Part shown: piece by piece, positions 1 to 18,210 of the stretch
How the letters are laid out: every line of letters starts with the position of its first letter
Numbering within the stretch: position 1 is the first letter of the stretch
Assembly: GCA_021650915.1 (NCBI GenBank)
Contig: CP091279.1
Location: 3,990,001-4,022,000 of the forward strand
Direction: 5' to 3'
DNA: 32,000 nucleotides
Source: Candidatus Brocadia sp.
GTDB taxonomy: Bacteria; Planctomycetota; Brocadiia; Brocadiales; Brocadiaceae
Notes under the pieces: generated by a model
What the model saw: only the letters and a program-made list of their open reading frames with translations
Databases searched by the model: none
What the model was told of the DNA's origin: nothing
Position numbers and translations under genes: made by a program

Positions 1-255
1 CCCGCATTTTTGCGGGAGCGTTACCTGTAATTCATCTTATTATTGGGAAAGAACTATTTTAAACACGCAGAGCGATTCTACTTTAAATACGCTCTTCGTG
101 TCAAACAAATTGTTTTTTCTTGCCGTTTGGCAATCACACACACTTCGTCATTTTTCCTTTGATTCTCCATCACAAGAAATATACAATATCGCCTGATGTT
201 CATTTGTGATTTGAGCTTGTGCGCAATTTTCTTGCTAAAGGGGGATATAATTTAC

Positions 256-1416
256 ATGAGATTGAAAAGAGACGTCCATCCGGTTTTTCTTCCTGCGGTA
301 ATGCTTATCATTCTTATGCTCATGGGATCAGGCTGTGCCATGTTTAAGAAAAAAACACTTTTAGTTCCGCGAGAAGCAGGGGATACCCTCGTGGAGATTA
401 CCGACCCCACACAACTTCCTCAGTTTAGAGACGATTACAGCCGTGATTCCCTCTTGCAATCGATCGATCATAGCCTTGACTACTTTAAGAGAGTGAAGGC
501 GAATCCGTATGGTTTTCATATGGATGGTTTTTCACACGAAAATCTGGAAGATTCCCTAAAGTTCTTTCGGGAAGGTTTTTTACGCTGCAGAGACACTGCG
601 GAGATCAACGATTTCATCGTAAAAAACTTCAGGGTCTTTCAGGCCATAGGAAAGGCTTACGAGGGACAGGTGCATTTCACCGGTTATGGAACGCCCATCT
701 ACGATGGAAGCCTCACCCCAACCGGAGAATTTCGCTATCCCCTTTATAAAATCCCGCCAGACTTCAGGAAACCTTATTATACCCGGAGTGAGATCGAGGA
801 CCGCAATCTCTTAAAAGGACTTGAAATTGCCTATCTCAAATCCAAACTGGACGCCTACCTCATTCACGTTCAGGGATCGGGGCAAATACGGCTTGCGTCG
901 GGTGAAAAGGTCTATGTGGGGTACGGCGCTGATTCAGGCCACAAATATAGCAGTATTGGGCGTATGCTCGTTATGGACGGGAAGATTCCCGAAGAGGAAT
1001 TGACCCTTTCGACGCTCATTGCCTATTTTAACCAGCACCCGGGTGAACTCGATTCTTACCTCAGGAAAAACGACCGCTATATCTTTTTCAAGCGGGTCAA
1101 CTATGCAACCCCCTACGGCTCTATCGGCGTGCCGGTAACTCCTATGAGGAGTATCGCCACCGACAAAAAGGTCTTCCCGGCTGGTGGTTTGGCCTTTGCA
1201 GTTATCGAACCAAAGAAGGCAAAGAAGACCTGGAAGTTTTGGGAAAAAGGGACGAGCGGGACAGAAAAATCGTTCTTTGTTCTCGATCAGGATACGGGAA
1301 GCGCCATTCAGACCCCGGCCAGGGCAGATGTCTATTTCGGAATCGGAGACCAGGCAATGTATGAGGCCGGGAGCTTAAATACCTACGGACGACTCTATTA
1401 TTTCCTGAAACGGTAG
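256..1416 (+). CDS. mltA: Membrane-bound lytic murein transglycosylase A (MltA domain plus C-terminal 3D domain), exported or lipoprotein-like
   Basis: The ORF track gives 196..1416. I prefer the internal ATG at 256 (MRLKRDV...), which is followed by a hydrophobic signal ending in LMGSGC. MltA-type motifs are LIHVQGSGQIRL and GYGADSGHKYSSIGRML. The 3D-domain end is LDQDTGSAIQTPARADVYFGIGDQA. Confidence 0.8.
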   Translation: MRLKRDVHPVFLPAVMLIILMLMGSGCAMFKKKTLLVPREAGDTLVEITDPTQLPQFRDDYSRDSLLQSIDHSLDYFKRVKANPYGFHMDGFSHENLEDSLKFFREGFLRCRDTAEINDFIVKNFRVFQAIGKAYEGQVHFTGYGTPIYDGSLTPTGEFRYPLYKIPPDFRKPYYTRSEIEDRNLLKGLEIAYLKSKLDAYLIHVQGSGQIRLASGEKVYVGYGADSGHKYSSIGRMLVMDGKIPEEELTLSTLIAYFNQHPGELDSYLRKNDRYIFFKRVNYATPYGSIGVPVTPMRSIATDKKVFPAGGLAFAVIEPKKAKKTWKFWEKGTSGTEKSFFVLDQDTGSAIQTPARADVYFGIGDQAMYEAGSLNTYGRLYYFLKR

Positions 1417-1481: not shown

Positions 1482-1510
1482 TTGACATTGGCCCGTATTA
1501 GATATATCTT
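1482..1510 (+). promoter_or_regulatory. Possible sigma70-type promoter (TTGACA at 1482-1487, AT-rich -10 candidates TATATC/TATCTT about 15-17 nt downstream)
   Basis: There is an exact TTGACA hexamer, but the -10 element is ambiguous. It lies about 25-45 nt upstream of the structured leader described next. Confidence 0.3.
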
Positions 1511-1527
1511 CATATACTCAATAATTT

Positions 1528-1672
1528 CGACAAAGGTAAACTCTGAGTGATCAGGGGGCGCAAAGTAAAGGGTCTTTCTCCACAGTTGAGATAGAGTGCA
1601 TCTCTTATAAAATAAAAAGATAGCCTTACTGCCGAAGCATTGTAATATTTAGCAGTAAGGCTATCTTTTTAG
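1528..1672 (+). promoter_or_regulatory. Candidate c-di-GMP-I (GEMM-I) riboswitch aptamer with overlapping intrinsic terminator, in the leader of the first OmcB-like gene
   Basis: On the + strand the order is ACAAAGGUAAAC (1531-1541), stem CUCUGA/UCAGGG capped by the GNRA loop GUGA (1541-1556), GG-CGCAAAG (1557-1565), then GAUAGCCUUACUGCCGAAG (1619-1637). This follows my recollection of the GEMM-I pattern AAAGGCAAAC-stem-GNRA-stem-GGACGCAAAGC ... AGC.GGG.UGCCGAA. GGUAA (1535-1539) can pair with UUACU (1626-1630). The 3' conserved block lies inside the 5' arm of the terminator hairpin. I could not fold the second (receptor) helix convincingly by eye. Confidence 0.4.
1614..1670. terminator. Perfect 19-bp hairpin (AAAAAGATAGCCTTACTGC / GCAGTAAGGCTATCTTTTT) flanked by an A-run and a T-run; intrinsic terminator
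   Basis: The arms 1614-1632 and 1652-1670 are exact reverse complements, and the 3' arm ends in TTTTT. It could terminate mltA, act as the riboswitch expression platform, or both. Confidence 0.7.
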
Positions 1673-1837
1673 TAATAACCGTAAAGGGATTGTTTGTCTT
1701 TAGCATGATTTTATTAAATACTCATACATAAAAGGGAGTATATAAGCCGCCTAAACGGCAAAGGAGTTGGCTCATGTTACAGGAAGCAAGAGGGCTCCTT
1801 TTAAAGATCATGTGTCTTTTTTAGAAAGGAGGAGTAA

Positions 1838-3469
1838 ATGAGGTTAAGGAATAGTATGTACAAATTGTTGTGTATTTCTGGCTTGATGTCGTTTGCACTT
1901 TACGGGTGCGGAATGTTCAAATATGAAGCTGGTGTCGAGCATGATAAGCCACCGTACTATCATGGACACGTTGAAGATGAACCACCGGCAAGGCACCTTC
2001 GGTCGCATGTACATGAAGCACCAGCTCCTGCACCAGCGCCAGCGCCTCAATCGGATGTCTGCACGGCAGATGGGGCATACCCGACGAATAGCAAGGATTG
2101 CTGCAGTGTTATTTATCTGCAAAAAATGGGCCCCTGCAGCGGTAGCGTGGGTCAGGAATATTGCTACGTAATAAAAGCCACGAACCTTACCAAAAGAAAG
2201 GTGAAAAACGTAGAAGTTATTCAGACCCTTCCCAAGAATTTTGAGGTGAGAAATTCCACCCCTGAATTGGGCACCGGAAGCGCGGGCGGTGTGGCGAAAT
2301 GGTTCTTGGGTGAGCTTGGCCCTGAAGAAACGAGAGAAATTAAGGTTTGCGGTATTCCGACACAAAGCGGAAACATGCCTTTCTGCACGGATGTTACGTA
2401 TAGTTTACCAGAGGTTTGCCTTGACCCGGTCATTACCGAGCCGAGGATAACCATCGCAAAGAGCGCTCCAGCCGAGGTTACCCTTTGTGATGTGATTCCG
2501 ATCACCTTTACCGTCACCAATACCGGCACGGGCGTAGCGAACAATATTAAAGTTAAGGAGACCTTGCCCGCAGGACTGGAGACGCAGGATGGCAGAACTG
2601 ATGTGGTCTTAGATGTTGGTTCATTAAATCCAGGCGAGTCGAGAGACGTTGCGTTGACGGCAAAAGCAACAAAAACCGGCACATTTAATAATACTGCGAC
2701 GGCGGTTGCCGATGGCGGTTTGAGTGCAGAATCCAATACAACCACGACTGCAGTAAGACAACCAGTGCTTGCTATCACAAAAGTAGGCAGCAGCGATAAA
2801 GTGTATCTGGGACGCAATATTTCATATGAAATTGTGGTAACCAACAATGGCGACTGCCCGGCGACATCAACCGTTGTTGAAGATAGCGTACCTGATAATG
2901 CCTCCGTGGTAAACGCCAGCGAAGGAGCAACCTTATTGGGTAGCACAGTTACCTGGAATGCAGGAACCATACAGCCGCAGGGATCACAGAAATTTACTCT
3001 GACGTTGAACCCCAAAGGCATTGGTACCGTGAAAAACACGGTGGCAGCGCGGGCTACCTGCGCAGAAGCCGTTTCAGCAGCAACTTCAACCGAAGTCGTA
3101 GGTATTGCTGCAATCCTGCTTGAGGTAATCGATATCGATGATCCTATTGAGGTTGGAAACGATGAAGTCTACGAAATCGTTGTAACCAACCAGGGTTCAG
3201 AAACGGGGACCAATATCAAAGTAACCTGCATACTTGAGGATGAAATGCAGTATGTAACTTCTGAAGGACCAACAACGGGAAGTGTTTCTGCTGACGGCAT
3301 GACGGTAACCTTCGACCCATTGCCAACCCTTGCTTCAAAGGCAAAAGCGATTTGGAAGGTCAAGGTGAAGGCGATGAAAGAGGGTGATGTCCGATTCAAG
3401 GTTATTATGACCGAGGATTGCCTGGGCAGACCAGTAGAAGAGACCGAAGCTACACATTTCTATGATTAA
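1838..3469 (+). CDS. Lipoprotein with four tandem DUF11 (conserved repeat domain) modules; OmcB-like (chlamydial 60-kDa cysteine-rich OMP-like)
   Basis: A strong RBS (AAAGGAGGAG) sits 5 nt before the ATG. The signal peptide ends in a lipobox-like ALYGC. A His/Pro-rich region with a (PA)5 linker follows. Repeated VTNxG..xxNxxV...LP modules are present. The C-terminal block DPIEVGNDEVYEIVVTNQGSETGTNIKV...GPT.G...VTFDPLPTLASKA...GDVRFKV...PVEETEATHFYD matches my memory of the OmcB C-terminus ([26 protein letters not shown]...GPTKG...VVFDSLPRLGSKE...GDARGEA...PVSDTENTHIY). Confidence 0.8.
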   Translation: MRLRNSMYKLLCISGLMSFALYGCGMFKYEAGVEHDKPPYYHGHVEDEPPARHLRSHVHEAPAPAPAPAPQSDVCTADGAYPTNSKDCCSVIYLQKMGPCSGSVGQEYCYVIKATNLTKRKVKNVEVIQTLPKNFEVRNSTPELGTGSAGGVAKWFLGELGPEETREIKVCGIPTQSGNMPFCTDVTYSLPEVCLDPVITEPRITIAKSAPAEVTLCDVIPITFTVTNTGTGVANNIKVKETLPAGLETQDGRTDVVLDVGSLNPGESRDVALTAKATKTGTFNNTATAVADGGLSAESNTTTTAVRQPVLAITKVGSSDKVYLGRNISYEIVVTNNGDCPATSTVVEDSVPDNASVVNASEGATLLGSTVTWNAGTIQPQGSQKFTLTLNPKGIGTVKNTVAARATCAEAVSAATSTEVVGIAAILLEVIDIDDPIEVGNDEVYEIVVTNQGSETGTNIKVTCILEDEMQYVTSEGPTTGSVSADGMTVTFDPLPTLASKAKAIWKVKVKAMKEGDVRFKVIMTEDCLGRPVEETEATHFYD

Positions 3470-3576
3470 GCTTCTCTTTTACTTCAGTGTCTGACACAAG
3501 CAGTCGGAGATGAAGTGATGTGAAGGAGACAGGAAGTTTTAGAATCTCCTTGAAGTGTAGTTGATTTTAGTATACA

Positions 3577-3622
3577 AAAGAAGGCCGGGACGCGTTCACC
3601 GACGCACCGGCCTTCTTTGTTT
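3577..3622 (+). terminator. Intrinsic terminator-like hairpin after the first OmcB-like gene
   Basis: AAAGAAGGCCGG (3577-3588) pairs with CCGGCCTTCTTT (3607-3618). There is an inner GCGT/ACGC pairing, and the hairpin is followed by GTTTC. Confidence 0.6.
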
Positions 3623-3792
3623 CATGGTAACAGTATCGTTTTTGTGTACTTGTGCAGTATGTTATAAAGGGTATACCTCGCACCCTTAGAATGACCTCAG
3701 AGTACGACAACCTGTAATATCTCGTGTTTGCAAACATCAAGTGCATATCTTTGTATTAACCAGATTCAACCTTTTTTGAAAGGGGTTATTGC

Positions 3793-5385
3793 ATGTATTG
3801 CCAAAAGAGACGAAATCCTTTGATGCTTATATGCATGGCTGTAATATTTGGTATCTATGGCTGCAGTTACCAGCAAAACGATTTTTCGAACGAGAAACCG
3901 CCATATGCACACGGACATCTTGAAAAAGACCCAGGCCCAAGGCACGAACGTTTGCACAAGGGTGAGAACAAAGCCACGTACGATAACCAGGAAGACAACA
4001 GGGCCTTTTCCGCCATAAACAAGAAGTCCGGTGTTATCTTTATCGAAAAAAGTGCGCCTCCGGAGATTCAGGTCAACAGACCATTTGACTATCTTATCAA
4101 GATTACGAACCTTACCGATGAAAGGGTGCATGACGTTGAGGTAACCGAAACATTTTCCCCAAAATACAAAATAAAAAACACTATCCCCAAATCACGGAAA
4201 GGCCCGGGGGAAGGAACCGTAACGTGGTCAATAGGAGACCTGGGACCGAATGAAATGAAAGAAATTCGGGTAACTGGTGTCTCATTAGAAACCGGAGACA
4301 TGCCGTTTTGTACCGATGTTACTTATAACTTGCCGCCACTCTGCCTTATTGCAACCGCCGTGGAGCCGAAGTTGACAATTACCAAACGTGCGCCCGCGGA
4401 GGTTTTATTATGTGATTCGATACCAGTAACTCTTGTGGTCAGTAATACTGGTACCGGCATCGCCAGGAATATCCAGGTGAGGGACACCCTGCCACAAGGA
4501 TTAAAAACGATCGATGGCAAGAGCAATATTGTTCAGGGAATTGATCTGTTACGGGCAGGAGAATCACGCGAGATTACCTTTACGGCTCAGGCAGACAGCC
4601 CGGGAAAGTTTGAGAATTCGGCAACGGTGGTTGCGGACGGTGGTCTGCAAGCCGAATCCAGTATGATTACCACCGTGGTAAAACAACCAGTACTGACCAT
4701 TGCCAAAAAGGGACCAGAGAGGATTTATACCGGACGCGACATTACTTACACAATCGGCGTAAGCAATAAGGGTGACGGTCCGGCAGCATCATCGGTTATT
4801 GAGGACACCATACCCGGGAACGCTACTTTTGTGAAGGCAGGCCAGGGCGGTATATTATCCGGAAACACGGTTACCTGGAATTTAGGGACTTTGCTGCCTC
4901 GCGACTCAAGAAAAGTCAGCGTGACTTTACAGGGAAGAGGTCTTGGCAAAATAACAAATACCGCAACCATTAAGGGTGAATGCGCCAGCCAGGCATCAGC
5001 AACCGCTGTTACCGACGTAATCGGGATAGCTGCTATTTTACTGGAAGTAATTGACCTGGCGGACCCCATAGAGGTTGGAAGCAATGAGACCTACGAGATT
5101 ACCGTGACCAACCAGGGCTCTGATTACAGCACCAATATCAGGATCGCCTGTACCCTTGAAGATACGATGCAGTATATATCCTCCGATGGGCCAACCAAGG
5201 GAACATGCGTTGGCAAGACCGTGACTTTTGATTCTTTAATAAGCCTTGCACCAAAGGCAGCAACAACCTGGAAGGTCGTTGTGAAGGCATTACGTCCCGG
5301 AGACGTTCGCTTCAAGGTCGAAATGATCGAGGACTGTCTGAGGAGGCCAGTAGAAGAGACGGAGGCAACCAATTTTTATGAATAA
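3793..5385 (+). CDS. Paralogous OmcB-like DUF11-repeat lipoprotein
   Basis: It is colinear with 1838..3469 along its whole length. It shares KPPY.HGH, MPFCTDVTY.LP, GIAAILLEVID..DPIEVG, VTNQGS, GDVRFKV and PVEETEATNFYE. Its lipobox-like sequence is GIYGC. Confidence 0.8.
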   Translation: MYCQKRRNPLMLICMAVIFGIYGCSYQQNDFSNEKPPYAHGHLEKDPGPRHERLHKGENKATYDNQEDNRAFSAINKKSGVIFIEKSAPPEIQVNRPFDYLIKITNLTDERVHDVEVTETFSPKYKIKNTIPKSRKGPGEGTVTWSIGDLGPNEMKEIRVTGVSLETGDMPFCTDVTYNLPPLCLIATAVEPKLTITKRAPAEVLLCDSIPVTLVVSNTGTGIARNIQVRDTLPQGLKTIDGKSNIVQGIDLLRAGESREITFTAQADSPGKFENSATVVADGGLQAESSMITTVVKQPVLTIAKKGPERIYTGRDITYTIGVSNKGDGPAASSVIEDTIPGNATFVKAGQGGILSGNTVTWNLGTLLPRDSRKVSVTLQGRGLGKITNTATIKGECASQASATAVTDVIGIAAILLEVIDLADPIEVGSNETYEITVTNQGSDYSTNIRIACTLEDTMQYISSDGPTKGTCVGKTVTFDSLISLAPKAATTWKVVVKALRPGDVRFKVEMIEDCLRRPVEETEATNFYE

Positions 5386-5480: not shown

Positions 5481-5510
5481 TTGACACAAAATACTCTCAT
5501 TAGCTATAAT
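5481..5510 (+). promoter_or_regulatory. Near-consensus sigma70 promoter (TTGACA-N18-TATAAT)
   Basis: TTGACA lies at 5481-5486 and TATAAT at 5505-5510. This would give a leader of about 165 nt before the hemerythrin-domain gene. Confidence 0.5.
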
Positions 5511-5682: not shown

Positions 5683-6486
5683 GTGTTTTTGGAGAATGTA
5701 TTAAATAAGGAAATAAAAAAGATCATTGACGACTGTCCTGAAGTAGGCCGTATTCTTGAGGAATATGGCATTGGCTGTGTCCCCTGTTCCGTGGGCAGCT
5801 GCCTTTTGAAGGATGTTGTGGGAATCCACAATCTTGATCCGGAACGGGAAGCCACCTTGATGTACCGGATAGAAAAGGCTATTTATCCTGATAGAAATGT
5901 TTCAAAGCCGGTGATAGATGCATCAAAAAAATCTGCGCCGAAGAAGATCACGTATTCACCACCGGTCAAAAAGCTGGTTGATGAGCATGTTCTGATCAAA
6001 CGGCTCCTGGCTTTAGTCCCTACCATTGTTGATTACATTGAAAGCAGCATGAAGGTGGATAAGGATCTGGTTTTAAAATGCGTTGATTTTATTCGGACCT
6101 ATGCAGACAAATATCATCACATGAAGGAAGAGGATATTTTGTTTAAGTATGTAGACGATAAGGCAGAGGTTATTCAGGTCATGTATAAGGACCATGACAC
6201 AGGAAGGGGTTACATCAGACAGGTTGTTGAGGGCGCTGAAACGGGGAATAAGGCGCAAATTAAGCAAAATCTGCTTGCCTATCGGGAATTGCTCACCCAG
6301 CATATTAAAAAAGAGGATGAAATTCTTTACCCGTGGATTGATCGCCAGCTATCAACAACTCAGGTCGGCGAGATGTTTCGCAAGTGTAATGAAGCGGACG
6401 CTTCGGTAGGCGAAGAGCTACCAAAAAAGTATGAGCGGTTTATTACTGATTTAGAAGGAAAATTTTTACAGGAGGTTGTGAAATGA
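5683..6486 (+). CDS. DUF1858 (redox-disulfide, hybrid-cluster-protein-associated type) plus hemerythrin-like HHE di-iron domain protein; RIC/YtfE-like architecture
   Basis: The N-terminus (IIDDCPEVGRILEEYGIGCVPCSVGSCLLKDV) is of the DUF1858 type. The C-terminal half has hemerythrin-like ligand spacing (DEHVLIKRLL, YADKYHHMKEEDILF, LLTQHIKKEDEILYPWI). The start is uncertain: GTG at 5683, or TTG at 5689, which is better spaced from AAGGAGG. Confidence 0.65.
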   Translation: MFLENVLNKEIKKIIDDCPEVGRILEEYGIGCVPCSVGSCLLKDVVGIHNLDPEREATLMYRIEKAIYPDRNVSKPVIDASKKSAPKKITYSPPVKKLVDEHVLIKRLLALVPTIVDYIESSMKVDKDLVLKCVDFIRTYADKYHHMKEEDILFKYVDDKAEVIQVMYKDHDTGRGYIRQVVEGAETGNKAQIKQNLLAYRELLTQHIKKEDEILYPWIDRQLSTTQVGEMFRKCNEADASVGEELPKKYERFITDLEGKFLQEVVK

Positions 6487-12992: not shown

Positions 12993-13027
12993 TTTATTAG
13001 GCGATACGTACCGTGCCTGGAGAAAAG

Positions 13028-13963
13028 ATGCCTATCATTCTCAATGCCTTCATTATAGCATTCATTATCGTATATATCAATATTCCCGAAATCTTAGCTG
13101 ATGAATACCAAATCGCAGTGCTTGCCAGTCGCAACGAATCCCCTTATAAGGAGGTAATTGCGGGTTTTCAGAAAACAATCATAGACCAGAGAAGAGATAC
13201 AAAGTGCAATGTCTTTATCATGGAAAACGATAAAACGCAAATATCACAAAGCTTTCGTGACATCAAAAAAATCAAACCCAGGGTACTCTTTACGGTTGGA
13301 ACTGCTCCCACGGTAGAAGCTCTCAAAGTATTTACTGATATACCCGTTGTTGCAACCCTTGTGCTTGATGATGATATGATACTGCACGCACGTAATGCTA
13401 CCGGGGTAATACTCAGTTTTCCCATAGAAACACAGTTCCATTTGCTCAAAAACTTTCTCCCGGAGGCAAAAAAGATTGGTGTTATTTACAACCCTGCGGA
13501 AAACCGGGAAAAAATCCGATCCGCCACAATCATAGCAGAAAAAATGGGGCTCGATCTTCATCCTGTGGATGTCCATTCGCCCAAAGATATTCCCAAGGCA
13601 CTCAAGACCTTGGCAAGTGGTATTGACATCTTGTGGGGAATAAATGATGCCCTGGTATTTAACTCGCTAACGGCAAAACAAATCTTGCTATTTTCCTTTA
13701 GAAATCATGTGCCATTCAGCGGTCTTTCTTCCACTTGGGTAAAGGCAGGCGCTCTGTATGCGCTGGAATATGATTTTCATGATATCGGCGTGCAGTGTGG
13801 CGAAAAATCCCTTAAGATCCTGCAGGGGGCAAAAGTAAACTCTCTGCCCGTATGTTTACCCCGAAAATTGCTTTATGCTTTGAATCTGAGAACGGCCAGA
13901 TACATGAAGATAAAATTTCGCGAAGAGCACATTCATAATGCATATCAGATTTTTGATGAATGA
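13028..13963 (+). CDS. Periplasmic ABC_sub_bind-family (PF04392-like) solute-binding protein, without adjacent permease or ATPase genes
   Basis: The pattern YQIAVLAS...PYKEVIAGF...VGTAPT...IPVV...ATGV...IGVIYNPAENREK...ND is typical of the family. The track start is GTG 13013; ATG 13028 has a better-placed GGAGAAAAG RBS. Confidence 0.7.
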   Translation: MPIILNAFIIAFIIVYINIPEILADEYQIAVLASRNESPYKEVIAGFQKTIIDQRRDTKCNVFIMENDKTQISQSFRDIKKIKPRVLFTVGTAPTVEALKVFTDIPVVATLVLDDDMILHARNATGVILSFPIETQFHLLKNFLPEAKKIGVIYNPAENREKIRSATIIAEKMGLDLHPVDVHSPKDIPKALKTLASGIDILWGINDALVFNSLTAKQILLFSFRNHVPFSGLSSTWVKAGALYALEYDFHDIGVQCGEKSLKILQGAKVNSLPVCLPRKLLYALNLRTARYMKIKFREEHIHNAYQIFDE

Positions 13964-15666
13964 TTATGGCAAGGACAAAAGAGACGACGGGAAAGAGACG
14001 ATTAAGCATTGCGGCGAAGTTTAATCTTCTAACCATTTTTATTATTCTGGTAACTGCGGCAGGAATAAGCTATTTCCTCATACAAAATGCTACTTCTCAT
14101 ATATATCGCAACCTGGTAAATCATGGCTTAATTATTGCCGGCATGGCGTCGCAAACCAGTGAATACTGTATCTACACCGGGGACAAAGAATCTATGAAGC
14201 TGATTATTGAAAGTCTGGAAGTGGATGAAGACATTGCCTATGTATGCCTTCTTGATAAAGAAAAAAGGCAACTTATGTTCAAAATCTTTATCCCTGGATT
14301 GGTAATTCCACCGCTTCCTCAAGGGGAGATGACAGACGACGGCTTCACCTTCACAACACACTACGAAGAATTTATAAATAGAGAAGATGGGAACCGATAC
14401 CTCGGCTTCTTTTCTCCCGTAATTGGCTATATCAATAACAAACCAAGCGATGAATTCTCAACCCACAAAGAAAGTGCGAACCAGGAGATTATTGGATATG
14501 TTCACCTTGGGTTATCGCTTCAAAACCTTCACAAAAGGATAAAGCAATTTCAGATATCTACGCTGGCCTTTACCTCGCTCTTCATATTTCTTGGCGTTAT
14601 CTTAACCCTGTTTCTTACAAAAAGAATTACTCTTCCCATCAAGAAATTAAGCTTAATAACAAAAAAAGTATCAATGGGTGTATTCGAACACACGGTTTCT
14701 GTTCGCACAAACGATGAAATTTCCGATCTTGCAGCCACCTTTAACCATATGGTCGACCGACTGCGAGCGTATCGCGAGGCGATAGAGTCACACAATCAGG
14801 AACTCTTAAATACCAATGAACACCTGTTACAGGAGATCACGATCCGTAAACAGATAGAGAGGGCGCTTGAAGAAAAGACTCGGGAGATTATCCGTTCGAA
14901 TAAGGATTTGGAGCAATTCGCCTATATCGTTTCCCATGATTTACAGGAACCCCTGCGAAAGGTAATGGTGTTTGGTGATCGGTTGAGTACGAAATATGGA
15001 CATGCCTTATCCCATGAAGGGCGTGATTATATCGATCGTATGAAAAATGCGTCACAGCGGATGCAAACCCTCATAACCGATCTTCTTGCTTACTCAAGAG
15101 TCACCACCCATACCAGACCATTCACCCGGGTTGATCTTGCCAGGCTCATTCAGGAGGTAATCAGCGATCTGGAAATCCGGTTAGAAAGAACGGGAGGACG
15201 GGTAATCCTTGGGAATTTACCGACTGTTCATGCTGATGCTGTTCAAATGCGACAGTTATTTCAAAATCTCATCGGGAACGCCCTGAAATACCATCGTGAT
15301 GGGGTGCCGCCGGTGATTGAGATTCAGACACACTACCCCAAGGGCATGAAGGAAGACCACACACAGACCTCTCACCGTAATGACTTGTGCGAAATTACGG
15401 TTGCAGATAACGGAATTGGGTTTGAAGAGAAGTATGCCGAGTACATCTTTGGAATTTTCCAGAGATTACACCGGCGCGATGAATACGAAGGAACTGGTGT
15501 AGGGCTGTCGCTTTGCCGAAAAATTGTAGAGCGTCACGGCGGAAGGATCACCGCAACAAGCGCTCCCGGGAAGGGTGCGAAATTTACTATTGTATTACCG
15601 GTAGCGCCAGCACAAGAAAAAAGCCATGGAAGGCACAAAGAAATTATTTCCCATCTTAATAGCTGA
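13960..15666 (+). CDS. Sensor histidine kinase (TM - periplasmic sensor domain of about 165 aa - TM - HAMP - HisKA - HATPase)
   Basis: Its start overlaps the upstream stop (ATGA). The H-box is FAYIVSHDLQEPLRKV, the N-box LIGNALKYH, G1 DNGIGF and G2 GTGVGLSLC. Confidence 0.85.
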   Translation: MIMARTKETTGKRRLSIAAKFNLLTIFIILVTAAGISYFLIQNATSHIYRNLVNHGLIIAGMASQTSEYCIYTGDKESMKLIIESLEVDEDIAYVCLLDKEKRQLMFKIFIPGLVIPPLPQGEMTDDGFTFTTHYEEFINREDGNRYLGFFSPVIGYINNKPSDEFSTHKESANQEIIGYVHLGLSLQNLHKRIKQFQISTLAFTSLFIFLGVILTLFLTKRITLPIKKLSLITKKVSMGVFEHTVSVRTNDEISDLAATFNHMVDRLRAYREAIESHNQELLNTNEHLLQEITIRKQIERALEEKTREIIRSNKDLEQFAYIVSHDLQEPLRKVMVFGDRLSTKYGHALSHEGRDYIDRMKNASQRMQTLITDLLAYSRVTTHTRPFTRVDLARLIQEVISDLEIRLERTGGRVILGNLPTVHADAVQMRQLFQNLIGNALKYHRDGVPPVIEIQTHYPKGMKEDHTQTSHRNDLCEITVADNGIGFEEKYAEYIFGIFQRLHRRDEYEGTGVGLSLCRKIVERHGGRITATSAPGKGAKFTIVLPVAPAQEKSHGRHKEIISHLNS

Positions 15667-16072
15667 AGACGATCCGGATGACCGTCTCATCATACACGAC
15701 GCCTTTGAAGAAGCCGGCATGCATCATGCGGTTCATTACGTCGAGGATGGTCAGGAGTTAATGGATTATCTTTGCTTGCGGGGAAAATACTCCTGGCCAA
15801 ACCATTCACCGCGCCCGGGTATTATTCTCCTTGATCTGAATATGCCCAAAAAAAACGGACAAGATGCGCTAAGCGAAATCAAATCAGACCCGAGCCTGAA
15901 GCGAATCCCTGTTATTGTCATGACAACATCAAAAAGAGACGAGGATATCGGATTTCTGTATGATTTGGGCGCAAATTCATACATCCATAAACCAACGGAT
16001 TTTGCAACATTAGTAACAATTGTAAAGACGTTATCAAGATATTGGTTCGAAATTGTTGAACTCCCATCATAA
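15626..16072 (+). CDS. Single-domain CheY-like response regulator (Rcp1-like)
   Basis: Motifs are ILIAEDDPDDRLI, LLDLNMPKKNG (phospho-acceptor Asp) and SYIHKP. Its start lies 41 nt inside the end of the kinase gene, in another frame. Confidence 0.8.
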   Translation: MEGTKKLFPILIAEDDPDDRLIIHDAFEEAGMHHAVHYVEDGQELMDYLCLRGKYSWPNHSPRPGIILLDLNMPKKNGQDALSEIKSDPSLKRIPVIVMTTSKRDEDIGFLYDLGANSYIHKPTDFATLVTIVKTLSRYWFEIVELPS

Positions 16073-16086
16073 GGAGTAGAAATGCG

Positions 16087-18210
16087 ATGAACAATACCCG
16101 AATACGAATACTTCTCGTGGACGACGACGAAGATGATTATGTAATAGCCCGTGAATTGTTTTCTGAAATCTCGACCTGGAAACCTGAACTGGATTGGGTA
16201 AAAACGTATGACGCAGCAATGGAAATGATCCGGACAAGACAGCATGATGTGTATCTCTTTGATTATCGGCTTGGTCTCGGCGAACACACCGGACTGGAAC
16301 TCTTGCGTGAAACGATAACCACGGGTTGCAAGGCTCCCATAATCATCCTCACCGGTCAGGGAGATTACCGTGTGGATATGGAGGCAATACGAAAAGGTGC
16401 ATCGGATTACCTGATTAAGGGGCAGATAAACTCTTCACTGTTGGAGAAATCGATCCGCCATGCCATTGAACGCAAGCGTGCGGAAGAAGCAATCAGATCA
16501 GCAAAAAATTATTCGGAATACCTTGTTGCATGCTCGCTCGATATGATTGTTGCCGCCAACTTAGGCTTAGAAATCACCGAATTCAACCCCTCCGCCGAAA
16601 AGATGTTTGGCTATTGCAAGTCAGAAGTACTTGGCAAATCAATCCGCATGCTGTTTGCAGACGCCATGGAATCCAAACAGGTTACTGAAAAAATATTAAA
16701 AGAAAAGATTTTTTCAGGAGAAATAAATAAAAGAAAAAAAAGCGGGGAGATTTTCCCCTCCTTCTTATCTGCATCCATCCTGAAGGATATCAATGATAAA
16801 GAAATAGGAATCGTAGGTATTTTGCGCGATATAACAGAACGCAATCGTCTTATCGATCAACTCCGGTACAATGCATTTCACGATCCGTTAACAAACTTGC
16901 CCAACAGGAATCTGTTCATGGAACGATTGGAGCGCTTACTTGAACACGCAAAAAGAAACAGAAACAGTGCGTTTTCCGTCCTCTTTCTCGATCTCGACCG
17001 TTTCAAGGTGGTAAACGATAGCCTCGGTCACCTCTCGGGAGATAAATTGCTGATCTTAATTGCACAAAAATTGAGAGAATGCCTGCGAAGATCGGATACC
17101 GTTGCTCGTTTTGGAGGAGATGAGTTTGCAATCCTTCTTGATAATGTCGATGACCACTTCAATGCAAAATTTGTGGCAGAGAGAATCCTGGAAACCTTGA
17201 AGGATCCTTTCGTCCTCGACGGACACAAAATTGTTGTTTCTGCCAGCATTGGAATTGTTATAAAAGGCGAATTGTATAATCGTCCGGAGGATATTCTGAG
17301 AGACGCCGACACGGTGATGTATCGGGCAAAGATGCTTGGCAAGGCACGGTATGCAATATTTAATATTGAAATGCATGCCCATGCAATGAACTTTTTACAG
17401 TTAGAGACGGACCTCCGGCATGCTATTGAACGCTCGGAACTCGTCATTTATTATCAGCCCATTGTGTCATTGGCAACCTCGGAAATTGTTGCCGTCGAAT
17501 CTCTCGTTCGCTGGCAACATCCACAACGTGGCTTAATTTTACCGGATGAGTTCATTCCCCTGGCAGAGGAAACCCGGGAGATCGATAAGGTTGGCTATTG
17601 GGTTATCCAAGAGGCATGCGCCCAAAATAAGGCATGGCATGATATGGGATTTTCAAACATAACCGTCACCGTGAATATATCGTTGTTACAATTCCAGCGT
17701 AAGGAATTGCCGGAACAGATCGGAACAATCATTAAAAACACTGGCTTATCTGCCGACGCCTTTGAATTGGAAATCACGGAAAGCACGGTAATGGAGAGCA
17801 AGGGACTCGTTCTCGAAATTTTTAAAGAACTGAATAAGATGAAAATCCATCTCATGATGGATGATTTTGGTATCGGTTTTTCTTCAATCAACAGTTTGAA
17901 GCATCTTCCTTTCAGCACGTTAAAAATTGACCGGTCTTTAATTTCGGACATTGACACCAATCCGGACGCCTCGGCAATTGTCAAATCCATTATAGACATG
18001 GCGCACACGCTGAAAATAAAAGTGATTGCAGAGGGAGTGGAGACACCAGGCCAACTGGAGCTGTTGCGGTCGTATAACTGTGATTATGCACAGGGGTACT
18101 TGTTCTACTGTCCCATGAAAGCAGAAGAGATTACCAGCCTGCTGAGACAGTCAAAGAAATATCCGTCAGAAAAGAAAAGTAACATTACGCGTGAATTCAG
18201 TCCTTCGTAA
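16087..18210 (+). CDS. REC-PAS-GGDEF-EAL c-di-GMP turnover protein
   Basis: The REC domain shows ILLVDDDEDDY and DVYLFDYRLG. A PAS domain follows (..RDITERN). The GGDEF motif RFGGDEFAIL is intact. The EAL domain has ESLVRW in place of EALVRW, plus ELEITES, DDFGIGFSS, EGVET and QGYLF. Confidence 0.85.
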   Translation: MNNTRIRILLVDDDEDDYVIARELFSEISTWKPELDWVKTYDAAMEMIRTRQHDVYLFDYRLGLGEHTGLELLRETITTGCKAPIIILTGQGDYRVDMEAIRKGASDYLIKGQINSSLLEKSIRHAIERKRAEEAIRSAKNYSEYLVACSLDMIVAANLGLEITEFNPSAEKMFGYCKSEVLGKSIRMLFADAMESKQVTEKILKEKIFSGEINKRKKSGEIFPSFLSASILKDINDKEIGIVGILRDITERNRLIDQLRYNAFHDPLTNLPNRNLFMERLERLLEHAKRNRNSAFSVLFLDLDRFKVVNDSLGHLSGDKLLILIAQKLRECLRRSDTVARFGGDEFAILLDNVDDHFNAKFVAERILETLKDPFVLDGHKIVVSASIGIVIKGELYNRPEDILRDADTVMYRAKMLGKARYAIFNIEMHAHAMNFLQLETDLRHAIERSELVIYYQPIVSLATSEIVAVESLVRWQHPQRGLILPDEFIPLAEETREIDKVGYWVIQEACAQNKAWHDMGFSNITVTVNISLLQFQRKELPEQIGTIIKNTGLSADAFELEITESTVMESKGLVLEIFKELNKMKIHLMMDDFGIGFSSINSLKHLPFSTLKIDRSLISDIDTNPDASAIVKSIIDMAHTLKIKVIAEGVETPGQLELLRSYNCDYAQGYLFYCPMKAEEITSLLRQSKKYPSEKKSNITREFSPS

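Follow-up and report, generated by a model that had tools for sequence, protein, structure and literature searches.

A predicted class-I c-di-GMP riboswitch in the leader of a DUF11/CLIPPER protein gene of Candidatus Brocadia

What does the long 5' leader of a predicted surface-protein gene in Candidatus Brocadia respond to, and in which direction would it switch that gene? In anammox granular sludge, the concentration of c-di-GMP and the quantity of extracellular polymer matrix are correlated (review PMC11224092). In the literature searched, no direct c-di-GMP effector-target pair in Brocadia was found named, and no discussion of the riboswitch considered here was found, either for Brocadia or for anammox bacteria generally. 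The window (the whole stretch of DNA that was analysed, a 32 kb Candidatus Brocadia genome fragment with 45% G+C) contains a 421-nt leader before a gene that we call gene 1; this leader and the 1838-3469 product recur in several NCBI Brocadia assemblies (GCA_000987375.1, GCA_002050315.1 and others), 0 or 1 base apart. A preliminary description, made from the letters of the window, had read the leader as a c-di-GMP-I (GEMM-I) riboswitch whose aptamer and terminator exclude each other.

The whole window was scanned with the 4227 families of Rfam 15, and E-values refer to the window as a whole. RF01051 (c-di-GMP-I) matched the plus strand at 1525-1636 over the full model (positions 1-87), with 54.0 bits against a gathering score of 35 and an E-value of 4.7e-8; it was the sole match above gathering score in the 32 kb. 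This match, 19 bits above its gathering score, is the one that the preliminary description had proposed as a check. RF01786 (c-di-GMP-II) gave no match at E up to 10 within 1300-2000. As judged from its sequence, the leader of gene 1 carries an ordinary class-I c-di-GMP riboswitch with predicted ligand binding. Any Rfam-based annotation would flag the element; it is a good new example of a well-known device, with nothing new in kind as RNA biology.

The elements of the aptamer and of the rest of the leader are collected in Table 1. The conserved blocks listed in the preliminary description (ACAAAGGUAAAC, the 6-bp stem with its GUGA loop, GGCGCAAAG and GAUAGCCUUACUGCCGAAG) are all present in the places and the order that it had given. 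The first hairpin matches the family in its 2-bp stem, 3-nt internal loop, 6-bp stem and GNRA tetraloop. The GUGA loop, the lack of an 11-nt receptor and the bulge near the base of P2 correspond to the 'type II' or GYRA form without receptor (PMC1950547, PMC11218506), and the linker of three adenines is a defined feature of the family (PMC1950547).

Table 1. Coordinates of the leader elements, neighbouring genes and related leaders.
Feature	Position	Strand	Details
mltA	196-1416		upstream of the aptamer
Sigma-70-type promoter	1482-1510	+	-35 TTGACA 1482-1487, 17-nt spacer, -10 TATCTT 1505-1510
c-di-GMP-I (GEMM-I) aptamer	1525-1637	+	RF01051, 54 bits, and pair counts in 14 leaders
P1	1525-1529 with 1633-1637	+	5' strand UUUCG
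ACAAAGGUAAAC	1530-1541	+	
2-bp stem	1536-1537 with 1560-1561	+	G1536-C1561, U1537.G1560
6-bp stem	1541-1546 with 1551-1556	+	CUCUGA/UCAGGG, one U.G pair
GUGA loop	1547-1550	+	caps the 6-bp stem
GGCGCAAAG	1557-1565	+	
3-nt internal loop	1557-1559	+	GGC; C44 equivalent at 1559
AAA linker	A1562-A1564	+	between the two hairpins; invariant in 14/14 aligned leaders
P2	1564-1574 with 1619-1630	+	bulged A1568, bulged A1622-G1623
Variable distal part of P2	1575-1618 (44 nt)	+	hairpin GAGAU..AUCUC, A-rich 3' side
GAUAGCCUUACUGCCGAAG	1619-1637	+	53 nt after GGCGCAAAG
Intrinsic terminator / expression platform	1614-1670	+	perfect 19-bp inverted repeat, ends UUUUU
Terminator arms	1614-1632 and 1652-1670	+	5' arm AAAAAGAUAGCCUUACUGC, 3' arm GCAGUAAGGCUAUCUUUUU; 19-nt loop 1633-1651
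Second conserved leader module	1746-1832	+	conserved in 9 orthologous leaders
Hairpin GCCG/CGGC	1746-1759	+	
Pseudo-SD AAAGGAG	1760-1766	+	
Anti-SD-like CUCCUUU	1795-1801	+	
True SD AAAGGAGGAG	1825-1834	+	before ATG at 1838
Gene 1, DUF11/CLIPPER, probable lipoprotein	1838-3469	+	Pfam
Strong hairpin, then UUUGUUU	3577-3619	+	12 bp, G+C-rich; after gene 1
Gene 1 paralogue, DUF11/CLIPPER	3793-5385		
REC-PAS-GGDEF-EAL protein	16087-18210	+	Pfam; GGDEF motif intact, ESL replaces EAL
Leaders before the orthologous gene, Brocadia lineages	L009, L011, L012, L013, L014, L207		GEMM-I above gathering score
Leader cut by contig start	L206		contig begins inside the aptamer; part present canonical; no Rfam match
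Homologous leaders, core mutated	L007 (DTUAMX2), L008 (B. pituitae), L010 (B. sapporoensis)		31.9 bits, 23.5 bits, no match
Leader without riboswitch blocks	L208		no Rfam match
Sister riboswitches	L110:8572-8731; L123:1506-1703 and 2329-2480; L178:5232-5413; L182:754-951		metagenome contigs, 39-44% G+C

The pairing proposed earlier had to be revised in one respect. A GGUAA/UUACU closing helix with a compensatory change had been suggested; it is absent, GGU (1535-1537) being unpaired with the 3' UUACU, which (1626-1630) instead forms the base of P2 together with AGUAA (1564-1568). The second helix, which the preliminary description had left unfolded, is P2 itself, and it is 94% paired across 14 leaders. 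Its distal part varies in length and sequence in every lineage (alignments A2 and A3), and the Rfam alignment treats it as a 39-nt insertion. The second pair of the 2-bp stem is C-G or U-A in sister copies and a U.G wobble in the window. The window copy departs from the consensus in this pair (22-45) and at position 43 (Vc2 numbering), which is G where the consensus has A. That G, noted before as atypical ahead of CGCAAAG, is indeed there, but sister riboswitches above the threshold vary at this position (G in six, A in seven).

Residues G20, A47 and C92 contact c-di-GMP (PMC4744006), and the inter-helical pair C44-G83 is universally conserved (PMC4744006, PMC6140456). Model alignment, together with the spacing of 27 nt from G20 to A47, places the contact residues at G1535, A1562 and C1632, and the inter-helical pair at C1559 and, within the AG bulge, G1623; as read from the sequence, the nucleotides at these positions are those expected.

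Pairs were counted on an alignment of 14 related leaders (A3). For the aptamer, 90% of the cells were paired and six pairs had changed on both sides, as against 29-45% of cells paired in controls with slid partners; in the 6-bp stem, three of the six pairs had changed on both sides in relatives. In the same 14 leaders the terminator stem was 91% paired, and two of its pairs had changed on both sides, from A-U to G-C (L007, L008) and from C-G to U-A (L010). Covariation across orthologous loci, which had been suggested as a further check, is thus found in both the aptamer and the terminator of orthologous or sister leaders.

In the 5' untranslated region, promoter, aptamer, overlapping terminator and gene follow one another in this order. 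The promoter scores 10/12 in a promoter scan and sits 15-20 nt upstream of the aptamer; its TTGACA, its 17-nt spacing and the TAT of its -10 element are invariant in 9/9 orthologous Brocadia leaders. From its position, transcription is predicted to start at about 1517, some 8 nt before P1. Another promoter-like site, at 1586-1613, was rejected: it falls within the P2 insert, which is not conserved, and promoter-like sites are as numerous as chance would produce.

The 3' block had been described as embedded in the 5' arm of a perfect 19-bp terminator, and it is: this arm covers the 3' strand of P2 and C92, and the 3' strand of P1 falls in the terminator loop. Because all of this strand, together with C92, is taken up by the arm, aptamer and terminator are mutually exclusive, and from this exclusivity an ON switch is predicted. 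A simple terminator scan with a loop limit of 8 nt found nothing; hairpins with longer loops were confirmed by folding. The terminator hairpin alone folds with -30.6 kcal/mol. For the full leader, the minimum-energy fold is the terminator form (-49.9 kcal/mol), as against -24.8 kcal/mol with the aptamer enforced, so that termination would be the default state. In a truncated transcript the aptamer fold has -20.7 kcal/mol against a minimum of -23.8 kcal/mol, tertiary and ligand energies not being included in these values. An aptamer fold that lies above the minimum energy without ligand is usual for riboswitches, and gives no positive support.

From the terminator to the start codon there are about 170 nt more of conserved leader, in which further control may reside. 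They include a second module (Table 1), without Rfam match over 1746-1834, that may act additionally at the level of translation: in the RNAalifold structure CUCCUU is paired with the true SD, and the alternative pairing of CUCCUUU with the pseudo-SD shows one double change from G-C to A-U. A 16-codon open reading frame (ATG at 1775, behind the pseudo-SD) was considered as a leader peptide and discarded, as it is not conserved in orthologues. One could go further and hold that the main control is translational, with CUCCUUU alternating between pseudo-SD and true SD, and that the aptamer and terminator only fine-tune expression or end transcripts arriving from mltA, since the module is conserved, contains an SD-complementary element, shows some covariation, and the hairpin 1614-1670 also stands downstream of mltA. 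We consider this distinctly unlikely: the single-sequence fold of the module is not significant alone (z -1.2), the module has no overlap with the aptamer and so cannot read the ligand, and a conserved promoter separates mltA from the aptamer. Translational control of this kind would add to the riboswitch model rather than replace it.

The conserved blocks, for which the preliminary description had looked to orthologous leaders, are kept in L009, L011-L014 and L207; in L007, L008 and L010 the core is mutated, with CGC at positions 44-46 changed to CAG or CAC and with broken P1b pairs or a non-GNRA ACGA loop. Leaders with rewritten cores (L007:2186-2340, L008:2191-2343, L010:2191-2346; also L204 and L205) were recorded as a group of their own; they keep the P2 3' strand, C92 and the covarying terminator, and, from their sequences, appear to be either decayed or retuned riboswitches. 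Mutation of the core in three sister lineages implies that the riboswitch is evolutionarily labile.

It could be argued from these cases that the aptamer of the window is itself a decaying relic, its leader a constitutive attenuator or terminator, or one under control other than by c-di-GMP. Such a state may already hold in Brocadia sapporoensis and B. pituitae, where, as in L007, the terminator was kept when the core mutated; the window copy, too, has its G43 and its wobble at pair 22-45. For the window, however, we find decay very unlikely, given the margin of 19 bits over the gathering score, the retention of all ligand-contacting and tertiary-pair nucleotides, and the presence of G43 and U22 in further copies above the threshold; where copies are intact, P1b has undergone compensatory changes, a sign that selection continues.

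Scans for GEMM-I before the orthologous gene gave no match in another 14 Brocadiales-related loci (Brocadiaceae L015-L019 and L024; a second contig of Brocadia BIN37, L021; Kuenenia L020 and L023; Jettenia L022; Scalindua-type L025, L026, L028 and L029), and likewise none in 38 more loci from planctomycetes, Phycisphaerae and Lentisphaerae (L027, L030-L066; the scan excluded L067-L084). The riboswitch was found in none of the non-Brocadia anammox genera and in none of the other planctomycete loci scanned. A metagenome scan with the pattern ATAGNCTTNCTGCCGA, which is too loose and gave mostly chance matches, was real only in L110, L123, L178 and L182. It yielded five sister riboswitches, two of them in L123 and all five above the Rfam threshold, with the same terminator design and with a 3' half and terminator nearly identical to those of the window. 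They precede genes for a 1686-aa PKD/Ig/MopE-repeat surface protein, an Amidase_2 protein, a PqqD-like protein and a signal-peptide protein, which suggests, on sequence grounds, that a c-di-GMP surface-protein regulon spread through duplication of the leader. Nothing about the system is unexpected apart from its patchy occurrence and the rewriting of the core in sister species, and these only mildly so.

As to the ligand, RF03167 (c-di-GMP-I-GGC) also matched under permissive thresholds, with 58.0 bits against a gathering score of 59. In the core, the consensus lines of RF03167 and RF01051 differ solely in G or A after GACGC; the window has A1562 after GGCGC and is thus of the canonical c-di-GMP-I form. 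A GEMM-Ib reading, in which the A of ACAAAGG would be position 20, was rejected because both the G20-A47 spacing and the Rfam alignment give G1535 there. With G at position 20, c-di-GMP rather than 3'3'-cGAMP would be the expected ligand. That the riboswitch senses another cyclic dinucleotide, whether 3'3'-cGAMP as in GEMM-Ib or the ligand of the GGC variant, is highly improbable, for although RF03167 scores slightly above RF01051 in bits and several sister copies are reported under it, it stays below its own gathering score, the diagnostic nucleotide is A, and cGAMP-binding riboswitches carry A at position 20 (PMC6140456). As a separate observation, several canonical copies (A at position 47) among L012, L013, L110, L123 and L207 come out as RF03167, since it gives them the slightly better score, so that automatic naming can go astray.

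The reading that we favour, with a probability of roughly 0.8, is that the leader is a class-I c-di-GMP riboswitch of the GYRA-tetraloop, receptor-less form, acting as a transcriptional ON switch for gene 1. From the features described above we infer ligand binding as well as the direction and size of the response. The TTGACA-17-TATCTT promoter would set the start of transcription, about 8 nt ahead of the aptamer. If no ligand is present, the hairpin 1614-1632/1652-1670 with its U5 tract would form and RNA polymerase would stop at about 1670. If c-di-GMP binds between the equivalents G1535, A1562 and C1632, it would lock P1 and P2, the P2 3' strand and C92 would become unavailable for the 5' arm of the terminator, and the polymerase would read through the remaining leader of about 170 nt into gene 1. 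The decision would be kinetic, taken within the 14 nt from the end of the aptamer (1637) to the start of the 3' arm (1652). High c-di-GMP would then mean more of the surface protein. A sessile or aggregated outcome is usual for c-di-GMP, and the predicted rise in a surface protein is in keeping with it.

The product of gene 1 has 543 aa, with a signal peptide followed by ..LYGC, in which YGC is conserved, and four DUF11/CLIPPER repeats (Pfam PF01345, 4e-43); its sequence makes it a probable lipoprotein. The genes downstream of the leader had been called OmcB-like. Two DUF11/CLIPPER genes do stand there (Pfam), and the resemblance extends to the shared PF01345 domain family and no further. The family of DUF11/CLIPPER proteins of about 530 aa is widespread in Brocadiales, Phycisphaerae and Lentisphaerae, with orthologues in Brocadiales and Phycisphaerae. 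Among the proteins with CLIPPER/DUF11 domains are fibrillar adhesins and stabilizers of archaeal aggregates (PMC12617251, PMC11224092); a role of this kind may be supposed for the Brocadia protein.

After gene 1, the region 3468-3640 folds with -59.2 kcal/mol (z -4.45); its strong hairpin, whose loop exceeds 8 nt, is missed by the simple scan. As modelled, this hairpin is a probable terminator separating gene 1 from its paralogue, and the switch would for this reason most likely control gene 1 only. There is a hint that the structure is conserved in orthologous loci. Weak sub-threshold matches to unrelated sRNA or leader models were seen at the equivalent of 3468-3640 in L007, L015, L016 and L019.

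Other signals were noted in the neighbourhood. A cobalamin riboswitch (RF00174, 88-99 bits) occurs in seven orthologous loci (L007-L011, L016 and L019, the copy in L016 being cut off at the end of the locus), on the minus strand upstream of mltA and about 1.8 kb upstream of the DUF11 gene. The matching position falls just beyond the 5' end of the window; a divergent cbiM at this position in the window's own species is the likely target. At 5481-5510, before a gene for a hemerythrin-domain protein (5683-6486), stands a perfect sigma-70 consensus promoter (TTGACA, 18 nt, TATAAT; 12/12). A signalling cluster at 13013-18210 encodes an ABC-type substrate-binding protein, a HAMP histidine kinase, a REC protein and the REC-PAS-GGDEF-EAL protein, the latter being the GGDEF-EAL protein that the preliminary description had seen in the window and that Pfam places at 16087-18210. 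It is context only; its domains indicate that c-di-GMP is made or turned over in this organism, and the protein may be a local source or sink of the nucleotide.

For anammox biology, the riboswitch would provide a concrete link to c-di-GMP, consisting of one promoter, one aptamer, one terminator and one DUF11/CLIPPER lipoprotein, and it could be used as a native reporter of c-di-GMP in organisms not amenable to genetic manipulation. One may go further and imagine a Brocadia-specific family of ON riboswitches that directly drives CLIPPER/PKD-type surface proteins, the cores of B. sapporoensis and B. pituitae being of altered specificity rather than dead. We regard this as unlikely; if true, it would be the long-sought molecular link from c-di-GMP levels to the formation of anammox granules.

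The comparison with known systems begins with the Geobacter GEMM-Ib riboswitches for 3'3'-cGAMP, which have the same fold and belong to the same Rfam clan; they have A at position 20, whereas the window has G1535 and is not a member. The c-di-GMP riboswitch Vc2 of Vibrio cholerae (3IRW, 3MXH) shares with the window the equivalents of G20, A47, C92 and C44/G83 and the same 27-nt spacing from G20 to A47. Unlike the window, with its GUGA loop, its lack of a receptor and its other expression platform, Vc2 carries a GAAA tetraloop plus a receptor (type I). The cap gene of Bacillus thuringiensis encodes a surface adhesin. Upstream of it, Bc2 has been shown experimentally to be a transcriptional ON switch, c-di-GMP raising expression (PMC11218506). 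Bc2 and the Brocadia element have in common the layout of a c-di-GMP-I transcriptional ON switch before a gene, the direction being predicted for Brocadia; they differ in phylum and in the family of the downstream protein, which is unrelated, and Bc2 is experimentally validated whereas the Brocadia element is known computationally.

With the 'type II' members of RF01051 (Weinberg 2007, PMC1950547), the window shares the two-hairpin architecture, the 2-bp and 6-bp stems with a 3-nt internal loop, the GYRA loop (here GUGA), the AAA linker, the absence of the 11-nt receptor and an A bulged out close to the base of P2, as well as a terminator with the P2 3' strand serving as 5' arm, and a position in the 5' untranslated region of a cell-envelope gene. 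It differs from them in an unusually long P2 insert (39 nt, against 13 in the model), in G43 instead of A, in the U.G pair at 22-45, and in about 170 nt more of conserved leader after the terminator. GEMM RNAs were reported to be common in Planctomycetes in 2007, and in 78 of 322 of them a terminator overlaps the 3' side of P2, implying ligand-induced expression (PMC1950547).
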